In this document: positions 20,318 through 25,677 of the stretch, piece after piece
Position numbering within the stretch: position 1 is the first letter of the stretch
How the letters are laid out: the number at the start of each line of letters is the position of its first letter
IMG/VR virus record: IMGVR_UViG_3300045988_145346
From: a virus
DNA: 33,568 nucleotides
Direction: 5' to 3' (one strand)
Translations under genes and position numbers: made by a program
Notes under the pieces: model-generated
Seen by the model: the letters and a program-made list of their open reading frames with translations, nothing else
What the model was told of the DNA's origin: nothing
The model's database searches: none

Positions 20318-22429
20318 CTAAAAGTCATAAGCGGCTTTTTGCCATTGTAGTTGTTGTTGTCGTGCAATTTCACGTTCAGAAGGGTTTTCTTTCACAACAA
20401 CAGTCATTGGAGCGTGTATCTCCGTTTTTGATTGTTCTTGATTTAAAGCATCGACTGGAATGTTTCCAGCTATTTTTTGAGCAGCGATAATATTTGAGTT
20501 GCTGCCAATGTTCAATGCAGAATCCCATGAATCGTTATTTAAGATATTAGTATCAATTTCATCAGTAATTGCTGATTGAATTTGTTTTGCTATCCCAGAA
20601 ACATTTTTTTGAACAGCTTTAAAGTTTTCCATCAAACTGTCATTAAATCCACCCATAATAGCTTCACCAGCTGGAATTAGTAGTTTTCTATCATAACTAA
20701 TTGGTCCTTTATGTTCTTTAATCCAATCAGCAATTCCACCTACAAAACTTTTTACATTTTCGAATCCTGATTTGAGGCCACCTAAGAATCCATTTATAAT
20801 CGCAGAACCCGCTTCAATGAGCGAATCAGGTACGAACACTCCAACTATTGCTCTAAGCAGTTCTCCGGCTGCACTTCTTATATCATCTTGACGACTACTT
20901 ATGTTTTTAGCCAAATCTCTTATTAATTCAATACCAGCATCCATCAATCGACCTGATGCTTGGCCAATTCCACGAACCATTGCGTCAACTAAATTCATTG
21001 CAGCATTCACGATATCCGGAATTCTATTGGCGATCCCTTCTAAGAACTTGGTAATCAAATTAACTGCAGCATTGATGATTTTCCCTAAATTATTGGCAAT
21101 TCCATTAACAAAATTTGCAATCAAGGTAGCAGCTGCACTAATGATATCTGGCATTCGAGCGGCTAACGCATTTGTAAATTTAACCATTAAATTTACCGCA
21201 GTGTTGACGATTTTCGGCATATTTTGGGCAATTACTTGAGCGAAATTCAAAATGATATTTAACGCTTGTTGTGATACTTTACTAATATTATTGGCAATTC
21301 CCTGCATGAAGGTCAGCAGAAGATTCATTCCAGCTTGTAGTATTTTTGGTAAATGAGAATTGAGTGCAGTCAACCAAGTCACAATCAATTCTGCTGTATT
21401 TGCAACTAACGAAGGAATTTGAAGTGTGATCCCTTGAAGTAACGCATTGATCAGAGCTGCACCCGATGCGACTATTTGTAAAGCAGAAGCAGTTAATGCC
21501 CCGATAAATGCCACAATAATTGTCGTGGCAGACGTAGCTATTGTGGGAATAAGTAGCAACATAGCTCCTGTAAATGCTGTAATCAATTGCGCTGCCGCTA
21601 GAGTTAGCTGCGGCAATCCTTGTGCTAGGCCTGCCATAAACCCGGCAATCACTTTCAATCCTCCGGAAACAATTCCTGGCAACGCTGCTGCGATTGCTGT
21701 TAAGATTCCCTCTAGAGCAGTACCAAATGTTGAACCGAGCTTGGGAGCATTTTGCGCCATACTTGAAGCTAGTTCTTCAAATGATTGGGAAATCTGACTC
21801 ATTCCGCCTTTTATCCCTTTGTTTTGAAATGCATTAGCAATCATACCAACTACTTTCAGAACTAGTCCAGCTGGTCCTAGCAATGCACTAAAAGCCACTT
21901 GGAGAATTTTTAAACCAGCTGTTGGTAAATCAACTTTTGATTTTAGGTTTGAAAAAGTATCCCCTAATTTATCGAATCCTTTAAATGAACCCGTAATCTT
22001 TTTTTCAATATCCCGAAATGGCTCTAAAGCTGATCCTAATAAATTGCCGATTCCTTCTTTCACATATGGAATGGCCGCTTTGATAAATGTGACGACCGCT
22101 CCAGGAAGAGCCTTTAAAATATTTCCTACCATTGGAATAAAGTTCTTGAATAAGAATGTTGATGTTGTTGACGCCAACGCTTTCAATGGTCCTTGCAAAT
22201 CACGGCCTAGTGATAAGTTCCCCAGAACATTAGACATTGCAGATTTCATTGAATTAAATGACCCACTAAATGTTGTTGATGCTTCTTTCGCAGTTGTGCC
22301 TGTAATGTCCATTTCTGTTTGGATTGCATGAATCGCTTGCGTGATATCTGAGAAGTTTGAAATATCATACTTTTGACCAGTAAGCTTTTGAGCATCAGTC
22401 AAGAGTCGTTGCATTTCTTCTTTTGTACC
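20318..22429 (-). CDS. Tape measure protein, exon 4 (703 codons plus stop).
   Basis: Begins GGTACAAAAGAAGAAATG ([16 protein letters not shown]...). The 14 codons the ORF track places upstream (22430..22471) are the intron 3 terminus. Confidence 0.8.
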
Positions 22430-23355
22430 CAGTTGTACCCCTTGTTTCCAAGTATTTAAAAGGACTTGCATTTCTGCAAATCCTCAGGGCTTAGACTATA
22501 TCTTTATCAAAATCTTTTTCAAAATACCATTCATAACCTTTGTGTGTTTTTAATTTTTTGTGGCAACATTTAGAAATGCTTGTCACATCGAACCCATCAT
22601 TTTTTGCTAATATCTTTGCCTCGTAAAGTTTTGTTTTTCCTGTTTTTCGTTCATATTGTATGACAGGTTTAGCTGTTTTACTGTTTTCTGCAAACTTTCC
22701 AAAACTTGGATGTTTTTCGCCTCTTGGCATATTATTTCTTAATCCATTAATTTTAGCATGATATAAATTTTCTTTTGATGTTGCCCATTCAAGGTTGTTG
22801 ATATTGTTATTTTGTTTATTGCAATCTATATGGTTAACTTGTGGTTTGTTTTCAGGATTATCTATAAAATGGATAGCTACAAGCCGATGAATAGATAAAA
22901 ATTTTCGCTTGTTATGTTTCCTTAATCCAACTTGTAAATATCCATTATGTTTAAGCGTAGGTTTTATTAGTTGCCCAATTCTTTCATGTACTCCGTCATG
23001 TCTTGTGACACTTCTAACGTTTCCATTGTCGGACACTTGATAATATCCTTCAAAACCTTTAATATCTTTCCAAATTTCCATATTTACCACCGTTCCTTTG
23101 TTACTTATATTTTAACAAAATCTATGGTGGTTTGCAATTATAATTTTGATAGTAGGCGTTTCGAATGTCGTATTAATAGACACCCTACGAGCAAAGCTCT
23201 AGTCGTTGAACCTTCCTCTTTACAGAGGCTTGGCATAGGATTGTCATAGGATTCAGCCCTTAGATGTTCCCTATTAGCACATACTTATTTTTTATTAGTG
23301 TATGCACACCCATTAATAAAATGGTTAACCTACTTTTAATACGGCAATGTAGTTT
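22430..23355 (-). mobile_element. Group I intron 3 in the TMP gene (926 nt) carrying an HNH ORF.
   Basis: The 5' exon TACGGT pairs with the internal guide sequence GCCGTA. The core is homologous to introns 1 and 2 (GGGTGTGCATAC...GACAATCC...AACGACTA...TAGACTATATC). The intron ends on G, 8 nt after a GGGG run. Confidence 0.75.
22491..23081 (-). CDS. Intron-encoded HNH homing endonuclease 3.
   Basis: ...VNHIDCNKQNNNINNLEWATSKEN.... AAAGGAAC ribosome-binding site before the ATG at 23081. Confidence 0.8.
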   Translation of the reverse strand: MEIWKDIKGFEGYYQVSDNGNVRSVTRHDGVHERIGQLIKPTLKHNGYLQVGLRKHNKRKFLSIHRLVAIHFIDNPENKPQVNHIDCNKQNNNINNLEWATSKENLYHAKINGLRNNMPRGEKHPSFGKFAENSKTAKPVIQYERKTGKTKLYEAKILAKNDGFDVTSISKCCHKKLKTHKGYEWYFEKDFDKDIV

Positions 23356-23383
23356 ACCGTACCCCAGTTTCAAGTTATCTAAC
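23356..23383 (-). CDS. TMP mini-exon 3 (28 nt: G TTA GAT AAC TTG AAA CTG GGG TAC GGT, encoding (M)LDNLKLGYG).
   Basis: In-frame continuation between introns 2 and 3. It restores the ...[23 protein letters not shown] motif. Confidence 0.7.
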
Positions 23384-24248
23384 CAAATATACCCCCATTT
23401 TCATGGTATTTAAAAAGACCCACAATGCGTAGGTCTTAGGGTTTAGACTATATCTTCAACTAAATTAAAAACCCAGTTTTTCTTTTTACCTTTAACGTAG
23501 GTTTTTCCATATACAAAATTAGATTTGTTGCATTTGAAATAATTTGCGGTCGAATCTCTTGAATCAAATATGATTTCCTCGTTAGTGACAGTGTTGAAAG
23601 CTCGAACTTTCTTCTTTCTGTTTTCTATTCTGCTATGGTATCCATGACCGTAAGCATTTTCGGAAACGGTGACCCATCTTAAATTGGAAACGTGATTATC
23701 TTGTTTGTTTCCGTTTATATGGTCTATTTGAGGTAGATTATTAGGGTTATCGATAAAATGCTCACCGACTAACCTATGTATATATAGAGGTGTTGTTTTT
23801 CTACCTAACATAACTTGGCAGTATCCGTCTTTTCTAACAGAAACCTTTAACACCCTACCCGTTTTCTTGTTGCGAACTTCACCGTTTTCACTAACCTCAT
23901 AATTTGGTTTATTTTCAATTTCTTTCCACATATTAAAGCCCCCTTTTGATATTTTAATTATAGCATCTTAGGGGTTTAAATACAACTAAACTTACATGTA
24001 CATTTGTTAGTTGGTATGCACTTCCAACAACGTGCTAATAGTTGCCGTACTCGGTGACGAACCGATAGTCGTTGAACCTTCCTCTTTACAGAGGCTTGGC
24101 ACAGGATTGTCATAGCATCAGCCTTAGATTTTCCCTGTCAGCAAAATAATTTCAATAGCCATTTCCTGCTATATTTTTATTTCACACCGCTAGCTAGCGT
24201 TCACATACACTCGTTTGCATAATCACTTATGCAACGGACATTAGATTT
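23384..24248 (-). mobile_element. Group I intron 2 in the TMP gene (865 nt) carrying an HNH ORF.
   Basis: Homologous core and terminus (...GGGGGTATATTTG). The 5' boundary is inferred from reading-frame continuity, and the P1 pairing is weaker. Confidence 0.65.
23443..23931 (-). CDS. Intron-encoded HNH homing endonuclease 2.
   Basis: ...IDHINGNKQDNHVSNLRWVTVSEN.... GGGGG ribosome-binding site. Confidence 0.8.
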   Translation of the reverse strand: MWKEIENKPNYEVSENGEVRNKKTGRVLKVSVRKDGYCQVMLGRKTTPLYIHRLVGEHFIDNPNNLPQIDHINGNKQDNHVSNLRWVTVSENAYGHGYHSRIENRKKKVRAFNTVTNEEIIFDSRDSTANYFKCNKSNFVYGKTYVKGKKKNWVFNLVEDIV

Positions 24249-24325
24249 ATCGTGTAGTTCGATTTAGCAAAACCTTGATAAGCATTTTGAATATCACCAA
24301 CATTTGTACCCATCTTATTTGAGTT
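24249..24325 (-). CDS. TMP mini-exon 2 (77 nt encoding NSNKMGTNVGDIQNAYQGFAKSNYT plus AT).
   Basis: Own translation of the minus strand between the introns. Confidence 0.7.
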
Positions 24326-25239
24326 CCTAGATACCCCCACTTTCGTGGTATTTAAAAAGACCCACATGCAGTAGATCTTTAGGGAGTAGACTATATCATA
24401 TTGGCAAATTCGAAAAGATGACCTTTGTGTATTCCACCGTGATTACAACACCTTGATACTTCTGATTTTGTAAAACCATCTTTGACAGTTTCAACAATGG
24501 CACTGTATCTTTTCGTTTCATTTGTGATAATGTTAGTTGCTATAACTGGTTTTGCTTTTTTACTTTCAGCACCAAATTTACCATAATTGAAATGTTCTTT
24601 ACCGCTTATATGTTTTGTCAACCCATTCTTATAAGCATGTATAACATTATCTTGAACAGTAACCCACTCTAGGTTATCTAAGCTATTATTTAGCTTGTTC
24701 CCGTCTATATGGTTAACTTGTGGCAAGTTATCAGGATTCGGTATGAAATATTCAGCGATTAGTCTGTGGACGTAAAATTGTTTTCTTTTTCTGTTAATCG
24801 AAAAAGTAACCCTGTAATAACCATTAGGCGCAATATCTGGATTTAGCGTTTTGCCTTTCCAAGACCTTGTTCTACCAATTTTATCAGTTACAGTTCTGTC
24901 CTTACTTCTAATCTCTCCATTTGACGATATTTCATAAAATTCTTCGTACCCTTTTATTTTTACCCAGTTCATATTTAATACCCCCATATTTATTCTTTGT
25001 ATGGTTGTATTATATCACAAATTTGTTATTTTTACCAATCGCACCGCTTCGAGTTATGTATCAATAATAACTCTACTTCTAAATAGAATAGTCGTTAAAC
25101 TTTCCACTTTCGTGGCTTAGCACGGGATTGTCTTCGCCTGATAGCGTTAAGAGTTTCCCCGTCAGCACATACTTATTTTTTGTTTGCGTATGCACACCCT
25201 TGATAAGGTTCAATGCGTTTTAATCGGACTGATTAGTTA
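24326..25239 (-). mobile_element. Group I intron 1 in the TMP gene (914 nt) carrying an HNH ORF.
   Basis: The exon end TCGGAT pairs with the internal guide sequence GTCCGA 10 nt into the intron, with a U.G pair at the splice site. The intron ends ...GGGGGTATCTAGG. Confidence 0.75.
24391..24987 (-). CDS. Intron-encoded HNH homing endonuclease 1; the likely start is the ATG at 24972.
   Basis: ...VNHIDGNKLNNSLDNLEWVTVQDN.... Confidence 0.8.
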   Translation of the reverse strand: MGVLNMNWVKIKGYEEFYEISSNGEIRSKDRTVTDKIGRTRSWKGKTLNPDIAPNGYYRVTFSINRKRKQFYVHRLIAEYFIPNPDNLPQVNHIDGNKLNNSLDNLEWVTVQDNVIHAYKNGLTKHISGKEHFNYGKFGAESKKAKPVIATNIITNETKRYSAIVETVKDGFTKSEVSRCCNHGGIHKGHLFEFANMI

Positions 25240-25677
25240 ATCCGACATATCAACAATTGCTTGGTTTGATAAATCTGCGGCCTTAGCTGTATCTCCGTTC
25301 AATGATTTAATCATTGATGCAGAAAAACCTGTTACAGTTTCCATATATGCATTCGCAGACATACCAGCCGTTTTATAACCTTCTGTTGCATATTTTTTTA
25401 CTTTATCTGCATTATCTTTAAATAGAGTTTCGACCCCACCTAATGATTGTTGTAAATCAGCTCCTTCAGAAATTGATGAAGAAATTAATTTACCAAGTGC
25501 TGCTCCTGTTGCTACCACACCAGCTATTGCGGCGACCTTTAAGGCAGAACCAATTTTTAGACCTGCGCTATTTCCTGCCGACTCAGCTTCTGGGTCTAAT
25601 ATCCCAGACATTGAACCTGATATTCCTTTGGCAGATGGCATAATTTGCACATAAGCTTGTCCTAATTCTGTTGCCAT
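25240..25677 (-). CDS. Tape measure protein exon 1 (146 codons, ending ...AIVDMSD).
   Basis: GGAGG ribosome-binding site. A hydrophobic Ala/Gly-rich N-terminus is typical of TMPs. Confidence 0.8.

Follow-up and report, generated by a model that had tools for sequence, protein, structure and literature searches.

Introduction

A group I intron in the tape-measure protein (TMP) gene of Lactococcus phage r1t has been known since the description of the r1t genome (van Sinderen et al. 1996, as cited in PMC5601072), and group I introns of types IA1 and IA2 occupy three positions of the TMP gene (TMP-IVS1, TMP-IVS2 and TMP-IVS3) in prophages of the Bacillus cereus group, where TMP-IVS1 and TMP-IVS2 are homologous IA2 introns, 80% identical, fitted to different sites via changes in P1 and the internal guide sequence (IGS), and where loss of the homing endonuclease gene (HEG) and a patchy distribution have been described (Tourasse & Kolsto 2008, PMC2504315). 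Three group I introns in one gene are known from orf142 of Staphylococcus phage Twort (Landthaler & Shub 1999, as cited in PMC11878797), and phages of the Bastillevirinae carry two or three per gene, in the DNA polymerase and terminase genes, by sequential colonisation (PMC11878797). In the Streptococcus thermophilus lysin intron, ORF-containing and deletion-derivative forms coexist at one site (Foley et al. 2000, as cited in PMC5601072), and it is established for SPO1 and SP82 that HNH nicking endonucleases drive intron homing (PMC3984707). Here we compare with these systems the TMP gene of the IMG/VR virus record IMGVR_UViG_3300045988_145346, a stretch of 33,568 nucleotides that we call the window, in which three insertions, each with a gene for an HNH endonuclease, interrupt the coding sequence within a short distance of one another.

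Our conclusion, to which we assign a probability of about 85%, is that this gene carries three group I introns belonging to three old, site-specific lineages of intron plus HNH gene, which accumulated there by homing or recombination and were not copied from one another within the genome. The locus is unusually crowded but is otherwise ordinary intron homing, and it calls for no new mechanism. In the literature searched, which leaves most subscription journals outside it, we found no description of a lactococcal or streptococcal three-site system, of a TMP hot spot or of a triple-occupied gene of this kind.

The interrupted tape-measure gene

By megablast of phage records the window is that of a Lactococcus phage of the P335 type (r1t/phiLC3/50101-like), with matches to phiLC3, 50101, 86501, 63301, r1t, 38502 and proPhi7. 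The region belongs to a block of structural genes on the minus strand, where the listed open reading frames (ORFs) include one of 146 aa (25677..25237) and one of 717 aa (22471..20318), with three ORFs of 162-199 aa between them. The two flanking ORFs match the two ends of the TMP gene in the matched P335-type phages; in the megablast search the best coverage of the 3.4-kb query by any phage record was 27%, and none of these records contained all three introns. Alignment to the uninterrupted TMP of phage 50101 places four colinear TMP pieces in the window, with exact junctions, and the listed 717-aa ORF starts within what we call intron 3.

25677..20318, minus strand: TMP gene, interrupted by three insertions
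25240..25677, minus strand: TMP exon 1, 146 codons, ends ...VDMSD; 99.1% identical to 50101 up to the junction
24249..24325, minus strand: TMP exon 2, 77 nt, NSNKMGTNVGDIQNAYQGFAKSNYT + AT
23356..23383, minus strand: TMP exon 3, 28 nt, G + LDNLKLGYG
20318..22429, minus strand: TMP exon 4; 99.2% identical to 50101 from the junction on

Once joined, the exons form a single ORF of 884 aa with zero internal stops, colinear with the intron-less 50101 TMP, which reads ...AIVDMSD, then NSNKMGTNVGDIQNAYQGFAKSNYT(M)LDNLKLGYG, then exon 4, and is split at three insertion points: after codon 146, between ..DMSD and N (site 1); inside the Met codon of ..NYT(M)LDN (site 2); and between the Gly codons of ..LGYG and GTK (site 3). 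From site 1 to site 3 the distance is 105 bp, the sum of the 77-nt and 28-nt exons, so that the geometry of three adjacent sites within about 110 bp, anticipated by the initial annotation of this DNA, was right. The identity of the protein as TMP rests on annotated homologues and gene order, since the spliced sequence has zero matches in Pfam and NCBIfam.

Four dairy metagenome contigs, each assembled independently, contain the three introns in this same arrangement at 99.35-100% identity, and the arrangement is thus not an assembly chimera. In one of these relatives (L006, 5611-7557, at 99.35%; labels of the form L### denote related loci, L002 being r1t and L013 Str-PAP-1) the ORF of the last TMP exon has 648 aa, against 717 aa in the window (22471-20318). 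TMP length sets tail length, and this variant would be expected to give a shorter tail. Several Logan short-read assemblies of the window phage (L009-L012) break 149 nt upstream of HNH gene 3, within intron 3, which is consistent with confusion of the assemblers by the repeated intron core.

Intron 1 opens with an in-frame TAA directly after the codon GAT (25237-25239, minus strand), and therefore ribosomes on the unspliced RNA stop exactly at the 5' splice site; read-through into unspliced intron 2 meets a stop after 7 codons, and that into intron 3 not before about 30 codons. In most of the other site-1 introns the first three bases are AAA, not TAA.

Evidence for group I introns

The three insertions and the helices assigned to them are the following.

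24326..25239, minus strand: intron 1, 914 nt, site-1 lineage, last base G; IGS GTCCGA 25224-25229; P3 25212-25217 / 25040-25045; P4 25157-25162 / 25122-25127; P7 5' strand 25089-25095; P7.1 25077-25088; P7.2 25051-25073; P8 25031-25039 / 24400-24408; J8/7+P7' 24388-24399; GAAA-loop hairpin 24337-24348
23384..24248, minus strand: intron 2, 865 nt, site-2 lineage; IGS GTCCGT 24234-24239; P2 24215-24234; P3 24203-24208 / 24014-24019; P4 24133-24138 / 24101-24106; P7 5' strand 24066-24072; P7.1 24051-24065; P7.2 24025-24047; P8 24007-24013 / 23457-23463; J8/7+P7' 23445-23456; GAAA-loop hairpin 23395-23406
22430..23355, minus strand: intron 3, 926 nt, site-3 lineage; IGS GCCGTA 23340-23345; P3 23328-23333 / 23152-23157; P4 23269-23274 / 23246-23251; P7 5' strand 23200-23206; P7.1 23189-23199; P7.2 23163-23185; P8 23143-23151 / 22505-22513; J8/7+P7' 22493-22504; GAAA-loop hairpin 22441-22452

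In intron 1 the P6a hairpin (25104-25115) and the 3' GAAA-loop hairpin (24337-24348) are identical in sequence, CCACGAAAGTGG.

An alternative explanation is that these insertions are not introns at all, and that the TMP gene now consists of non-functional or separately translated fragments set apart by three free-standing HNH genes, the conserved flanks being DNA associated with the endonucleases. Public annotations of related phages do in fact give "tape measure protein" twice with an HNH gene between, and Rfam is silent on the window elements: neither its gathering threshold nor a cut-off of E<=10 yielded a group I match there, and the weak matches to SNORA81, tmRNA and plastid group II introns were dismissed as chance. 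The label of intron rests, therefore, on the other tests, and these make the alternative barely credible. Firstly, at each site the preceding exon ends in T (U in the RNA) and the intron in G, excision at these boundaries restores the 884-aa TMP colinear with its intron-less homologues, and exons as short as 28 and 77 nt cannot be genes in their own right. Secondly, each insertion has a P1 in which the exon pairs with the guide, including the U·G at the 5' splice site: TCGGAT/GTCCGA at site 1, ACGAT/GTC(C)GT at site 2 and TACGGT/GCCGTA at site 3. Exon and guide bases co-vary, with a compensatory change at site 1 of L033 (GCGGAT/GTCCGC). Inteins and free-standing HEGs were likewise considered and rejected.

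Thirdly, compensatory covariation is extensive in eight helices of the flanks. It was counted in 36 distinct members of the family, with the P8 loop cut out, on helices set by invariant anchors; a MAFFT alignment of the ORF-deleted introns misplaced both P1/P2 and P3'/P8 in the site-1 introns and was left unused. Canonical pairs make up 216/216 in P3 (with up to 4 pair types per position), 216/216 in P4, 144/144 in P6a, 139/140 in P7.1, 250/252 in P7.2, 250/252 in P8, where two-sided changes occur at 7/7 positions, and 140/140 in the 3' GAAA-loop hairpin; P7 (GACTA/TAGTC) is uninformative in this respect because it is invariant. P7.1 and P7.2, which lie between P7 and the 3' strand of P3 and covary, are a trait of the IA2 type.

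Fourthly, ORF-less versions of the flanks at the same sites score on the Rfam group I model RF00028, whose gathering score is 50 bits: two ORF-less relatives at site 3 are above it, at 67.8 (L024) and 60.3 bits, and another reaches 48.6 bits. Finally, the exon bases that flank occupied sites are essentially fixed, whereas the wobble positions are free in unoccupied alleles (7/7 versus 5/35, 27/27 versus 2/19 and 10/10 versus 5/29), with Fisher p values of 3e-5 to 1e-10 that are rough, as the sequences are related.

Besides the silence of Rfam on the window, some other observations weigh against a straightforward assignment. P1 of intron 2 requires a bulged C, and the ORF-less relatives at the other two sites score below the 50 bits: 38.2 and 34.9 at site 2 (L054 and L031) and 32.4 at site 1 (L033, 4153-4413; E=1.2e-4), the E-values of these and of the 48.6-bit relative running from 1.6e-9 to 1.2e-4 (1e-4 to 2e-6 for sites 1 and 2). 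The layout is also non-canonical, as the whole family has two covarying hairpins between the 5' strand of P3 and J3/4 (hpA, 138/144 canonical pairs; hpB, 213/216), located in the window at 25163-25211, 24139-24202 and 23275-23327, minus strand. The canonical position of the P3 5' strand, as in the Rfam alignment, was tried and discarded, with 29-51% canonical pairs versus 100% at the position used. Since the P3 5' strand does not adjoin J3/4 and P4, the family is best described as IA2-like with an extra 5' insertion; it is because of these two extra hairpins and of a 600-700-nt ORF in P8 that Rfam misses the window introns, and the hairpins may also be the reason for the sub-threshold scores of the members at sites 1 and 2.

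Taken together, the splice-site bases, the relatives, the covariation, P1 and the exon constraint establish, at the level of sequence, that the insertions have a group I ribozyme with an IA2-like design. Given that the frame is restored and the core conserved, all three introns would be expected to self-splice to give the 884-aa TMP.

The HNH endonuclease genes

Each intron contains one HNH gene.

24391..24972, minus strand: HNH gene 1 (H1), 193 aa, MNWVKIKGY... (MNWVKIKGYEEFYE), in the P8 loop of intron 1; stop TAG in J8/7
23443..23931, minus strand: HNH gene 2 (H2), 162 aa, MWKEIENKPNYEV..., in the P8 loop of intron 2; ends ...EDIV* across P8-3'/J8/7/P7'
22491..23081, minus strand: HNH gene 3 (H3), 196 aa, MEIWKDIKGFEGYY..., in the P8 loop of intron 3; last 8 codons KDFDKDIV* = P8-3'/J8/7/P7'

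All three proteins have NUMOD4 (PF07463) followed by HNH_3 (PF13392) above the Pfam cut-offs (H1, 4e-17 and 4.3e-12; H3, 1.9e-17 and 1.3e-8), with zero matches in NCBIfam, and the sole PDB match of each is I-HmuI (1U3E), which covers aa 1-189 of H1 (E=1.5e-15) and aa 4-185 of H3 (E=1.6e-20) but is limited to aa 2-100 of H2 (E=2.1e-15), where the C-terminus is shorter and different. The H of (D/N)H(I/K)(D/N), the N of NL(E/R)W and the (E/D)N that follows are retained in 3/3 ORFs, at positions that we assigned from I-HmuI and the family alignments. The initial annotation was thus right to see here three HNH homing endonucleases encoded within introns; each gene is on the minus strand, in one of three homologous TMP insertions.

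It had also held the proteins to be divergent, and the ORFs are indeed far from near-identical, with a pairwise amino-acid identity of 37-44% and with differing lengths and C-termini. The N-terminal part, which it had counted among what diverged, is on the contrary what is best conserved, namely the NUMOD4 and HNH modules, and it is the linker and the C-terminal DNA-binding region that have diverged, H2 being about 30 residues shorter there. As for the intron cores, it was correct to call them clearly homologous and mistaken in calling the scaffolds near-identical, since the non-ORF parts of the three introns are 65-67% identical overall and 52-78% by segment.

The ORFs end, as had been described, in or at GATATAGTCTA (also given as TAGACTATATC), with ...GAT ATA GTC TAA in H2 and H3 and ...ATG ATA TAG in H1. 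They overlap in this way P8-3'/J8/7/P7', so that translation of the endonuclease and folding of the ribozyme would compete on the same RNA, and on one RNA molecule the two are probably mutually exclusive, an idea that draws on the T4 td/I-TevI system. A purine-rich ribosome-binding site can be read ahead of each ORF. Promoter-like sequences with 10/12 matches precede H1 (TTGGTA-18-TGnTATAAT, 25038..25009) and H3 (TCGAAA-16-TATAAT, 23164..23137), and are only suggestive; it speaks against their significance that such sites are not enriched over shuffled sequence (19 found versus 13.8 +/- 3.4 expected).

Three site-specific lineages and their proposed origin

Related introns were gathered by scanning IMG/VR with a 19-nt motif of P4'/P6, which gave 62 loci, most of them TMP genes interrupted at exactly the same three positions, as located by tblastn with the TMP N-terminus. 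The same core motif, in a scan of genome contigs, led mostly to unrelated taxa and genes (TMP genes at 7/27 loci) and matched no Lactococcus representative genome. The members hosted by TMP genes are on contigs assigned to Lactococcus, Streptococcus, Tissierellia, Lachnospiraceae, Oscillospiraceae and Epulonipiscium. A TMP of the Firmicute type with these introns also occurs on contigs filed as Streptomyces (L091, NZ_JAVRBF010000076.1, "Streptomyces sp. P17") and in a "Muribaculaceae" metagenome-assembled genome (L081); L091 agrees with the IMG/VR locus L051 in both the identities and the spacing of its TMP-fragment matches, and both taxon labels are probably the product of contamination or mis-binning.

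Neighbour-joining trees were built from 44 5' cores and from 22 intron-encoded HNH proteins. Both split by insertion site, with sites 1 and 3 as sisters in each. The initial annotation had proposed such a comparison of introns with ORFs as a check; the ribozyme and protein trees are congruent, by site, and duplication within the genome finds no support in them. The window cores are 85% identical to a site-1 relative (L038), about 70% to site-2 relatives (L003/L030) and 96% to a site-3 relative (L035), versus 51-61% among themselves, and the HNH proteins are 98% (H1, L051), 76% (H2, L069) and 90% (H3, L035) identical to those of the same site, versus at most 46% across sites. The ORF-less site-3 intron of L024 is, moreover, 90% identical to intron 3 in the 5' core, the site-2 intron of Lactococcus phage 38502 agrees with intron 2 at about 70% over the length of intron 2, and H2 is 59-60% identical to the HNH proteins of the TMP introns of phages 38502 and Str-PAP-1. 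Each site has its own P7.1 hairpin (TTCYn..RGAA at site 1, TCGGTTCGTCACCGA at site 2 and GAGCnnnGCTC at site 3) and its own ORF length (about 190-198, 162-170 and 196-216 aa, respectively).

The lineages also occur apart. As single introns, site-2 members are found in phage 38502 and in many contigs, site-1 members in L036/L038/L055 and site-3 members in L035/L014/L015; sites 1+2 are occupied together in L078, and sites 2+3 in L024 and L057. None of the three sites lacks any of four states of the ORF: intact; broken, within an intron of full length (L030, L044 and L053); reduced to a remnant, as in "ORF-less" site-2 introns that retain only the last codons of the HNH gene, ..KGWTFELVEDIV (L029, L041-L043 and L049); and cleanly absent. 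This range is the classical cycle of gain, decay and loss, seen in snapshots of the decay and deletion of the endonuclease.

If, on the other hand, one unit had been copied within this genome to two neighbouring sites of the TMP gene and the copies had diverged in place, then a common ribozyme architecture, a common endonuclease family and a span of 105 bp would be accounted for, and so would certain patches of similarity: introns 2 and 3 share 53 nt at 96% (P4'-P6-P7; 23200-23252 versus 24066-24118) and introns 1 and 2 share 49 nt at 86% (P9 region; 23389-23437 versus 24331-24379). However, each unit of intron plus HNH gene is far closer to its same-site relatives elsewhere than to its neighbours, each lineage is found alone in other phages, and the surrounding exons 1 and 4 are 99% identical to those of the intron-less 50101 to within 6 nt or less of the outer junctions (sites 1 and 3), so that the host gene must be young relative to the divergence between the introns. 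Copying of this kind is therefore very unlikely, and, of the two origins contemplated by the initial annotation, independent invasion is favoured as the proximate cause, while duplication survives only as remote history.

As to the patches, the similarity is a mosaic. In the part before P4, intron 1 agrees with intron 3 at 77% and intron 2 with each of these at 52%; between P4 and P3' introns 2 and 3 agree at 78%, and in the 3' part introns 1 and 2 at 77%. The P6a hairpin is identical in introns 2 and 3, and other site-2 introns are without it; introns 1 and 3 share, for their part, 57 nt at 81% (23255-23311 versus 25143-25199) and the long A-rich hairpin upstream of P4. This suggests gene conversion between neighbouring introns of one genome, and the patches are better read as this later conversion than as traces of copying. 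They nevertheless show some exchange between co-resident introns, which blurs the signals of lineage, and the conclusion of three separate lineages should be weighed against this, as well as against the sampling, which is biased towards this intron family by the use of a single conserved 19-nt core motif to collect the loci, and against the trees, which are plain neighbour-joining on short alignments without bootstrap.

The three lineages are thus preferred as the source of the triple, and what is left to consider is its last step. In a variant that differs from our conclusion in this step only, the whole 2.8-kb segment (intron 1-exon 2-intron 2-exon 3-intron 3) was gained in one recombination from a donor that already had the three introns. 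It would fit well with the 99% identity to 50101 up to the outer junctions compared with 90-92% in the two small internal exons, 2 and 3, and with the presence of the same triple on TMP backbones that differ elsewhere (the 648 aa of the last exon in L006 versus 717 aa). The differences of exons 2 and 3 from 50101 lie within about 20 nt of the junctions and most restore the pairing of P1; this clustering and the near-identity of the outer exons fit a recent acquisition of the introns. Against the single transfer, the differences in exon 2 are at both ends, within about 12 nt of site 1 and about 19 nt of site 2, with the central 46 nt identical to 50101, and three short co-conversion tracts centred on the sites would give the same. 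Intermediate states of occupancy (1+2 and 2+3) exist, in addition, in other phages. We regard the single transfer as a serious possibility, although with less than an even chance; between arrival one at a time and arrival as a pre-assembled block the present data do not decide.

In the history that we propose, a remote common ancestor of the three lineages would have been retargeted to neighbouring positions of one highly conserved TMP motif. That the ancestral unit once moved to new neighbouring sites follows from the shared ribozyme architecture, the I-HmuI-like endonuclease and the congruent trees, and this retargeting long predates the window phage. The lineages would since have circulated among siphophages of Bacillota and accumulated in one gene. 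Each intron would be a composite mobile element, formed by the ribozyme and by an I-HmuI-family HNH gene in the P8 loop with what appear to be its own ribosome-binding site and promoter-like sequence; the guide of the ribozyme pairs, as sequence and covariation show, with the 5-6 bases that end the exon at its own site, and after transcription the three introns would be spliced out by themselves to leave the message of the 884-aa TMP. If it acts as I-HmuI does, each endonuclease would make a nick close to its own site in the intron-less TMP gene of a co-infecting phage or resident prophage, and repair from the intron-bearing copy would copy in the intron together with a few flanking exon bases. 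The polymorphism of presence and absence, the clustered flanking substitutions and the intact, degenerate or lost ORFs lend homing only indirect support.

The insertion hot spot

The N-terminal TMP motif into which these introns are inserted, DMSD-NANKMGT..IQNAYQGFAKQNYT-MLDNLKLGYG-GTK, is conserved in siphophages of Bacillota, and it also receives other elements. An intron of a different type is found after ..LKLG in r1t, proPhi7, L033, L049 and L059, with ORF-less forms that score 72 and 53 bits on RF00028; another, of 82 bits on the same model and with a separate "homing endonuclease" gene, is found after ..NSNKMG in Streptococcus phage Str-PAP-1 (L013, 1343-1629); and an element of about 200 nt, not called by Rfam, is found after ..LDNL in L051 (4490-4685).

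r1t-type introns after LKLG: L002 (r1t) 860-1795; L004; L033 3764-4074; L059 1876-2124

The motif is a hot spot: about 35 codons contain at least 4 verified insertion positions, or as many as six if two candidates are included. A bolder idea, which we put forward tentatively and would not back at even odds, is that it is a dedicated landing pad, where three sister lineages have co-diversified in guide, endonuclease and P7.1 after retargeting, and where stacking may aid the phage. If so, the locus would offer a natural series for the way in which an intron/HNH pair changes its target, and three nicking endonucleases stacked in a single essential gene might favour the dairy phage over intron-less P335 phages or prophages in mixed infection, by marker exclusion or interference. 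Interference by an intron endonuclease has been reported for phage PhiPA3 (PMC11620839).

At a practical level, pipelines and Rfam miss the introns, with the result that annotations show two TMP fragments and three "HNH endonucleases" and lose the exons of 77 and 28 nt, which means that TMP length is mis-stated for many dairy and streptococcal phages. The presence of three co-evolved pairs of ribozyme and endonuclease on adjacent positions of one motif, in intact, decayed and ORF-less forms, makes of this locus a handy natural system for the retargeting of homing endonucleases, for co-conversion and for possible competition between phages in cheese starter cultures.

Comparison with known systems

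A close case is the r1t intron (TMP ORF40/41/42; also in proPhi7), which belongs to the same phage group, the same gene and the same conserved N-terminal motif, has an HNH ORF (r1tp41) and shows a P7 core, ...AACGACTA / GATAGTCTA, like that of the window introns. It differs in that it is inserted at ..LKLG before YGG, 9 nt upstream of site 3, and in being of a different type, whose ORF has another position in the ribozyme and whose identity to the window introns is limited to about 78% over about 47 nt; r1t has, furthermore, one intron, versus three in the window phage, none of them at the r1t site.

The TMP introns of the Bacillus cereus group follow the same evolutionary logic, in other hosts and in another TMP family, and, by the description given of them, no single prophage has three HEG-bearing introns 77 and 28 nt apart (PMC2504315). 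In Twort orf142, as in the window, three related IA2 introns are found in one structural gene of a phage. The sequence used for the orf142-I2 ribozyme is 99% identical to the Twort genome, and by eye its core blocks in common with the window are ..CAAUCCUG.GCUAAGC.. and ..GCAACGACUA-P7.1-GUAG-P7.2-GAAAU-P3'-P8..GAUAUAGUCU. In Twort, judging from the sequence and the published structure, the 5' strand of P3 adjoins J3/4 directly, whereas the window family has the two extra hairpins there, and the intact HNH gene in the P8 of every intron sets the window apart from Twort as well.

At the level of the endonuclease, the known counterparts are those of the SPO1 and SP82 DNA-polymerase intron (I-HmuI/I-HmuII); H1 and H3 are homologous to I-HmuI over nearly their full length and H2 over NUMOD4+HNH only, with about 35-40% protein identity by eye between I-HmuI and the window proteins; the host gene is a different one. 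In SPO1, too, the ORF forms a loop in the 3' portion of an IA2 ribozyme. Lastly, the Bastillevirinae and Streptococcus thermophilus lysin introns concern different genes, and the exon spacing of 28 and 77 nt, together with three co-diverged lineages each bound to its own site, is particular to the TMP case.

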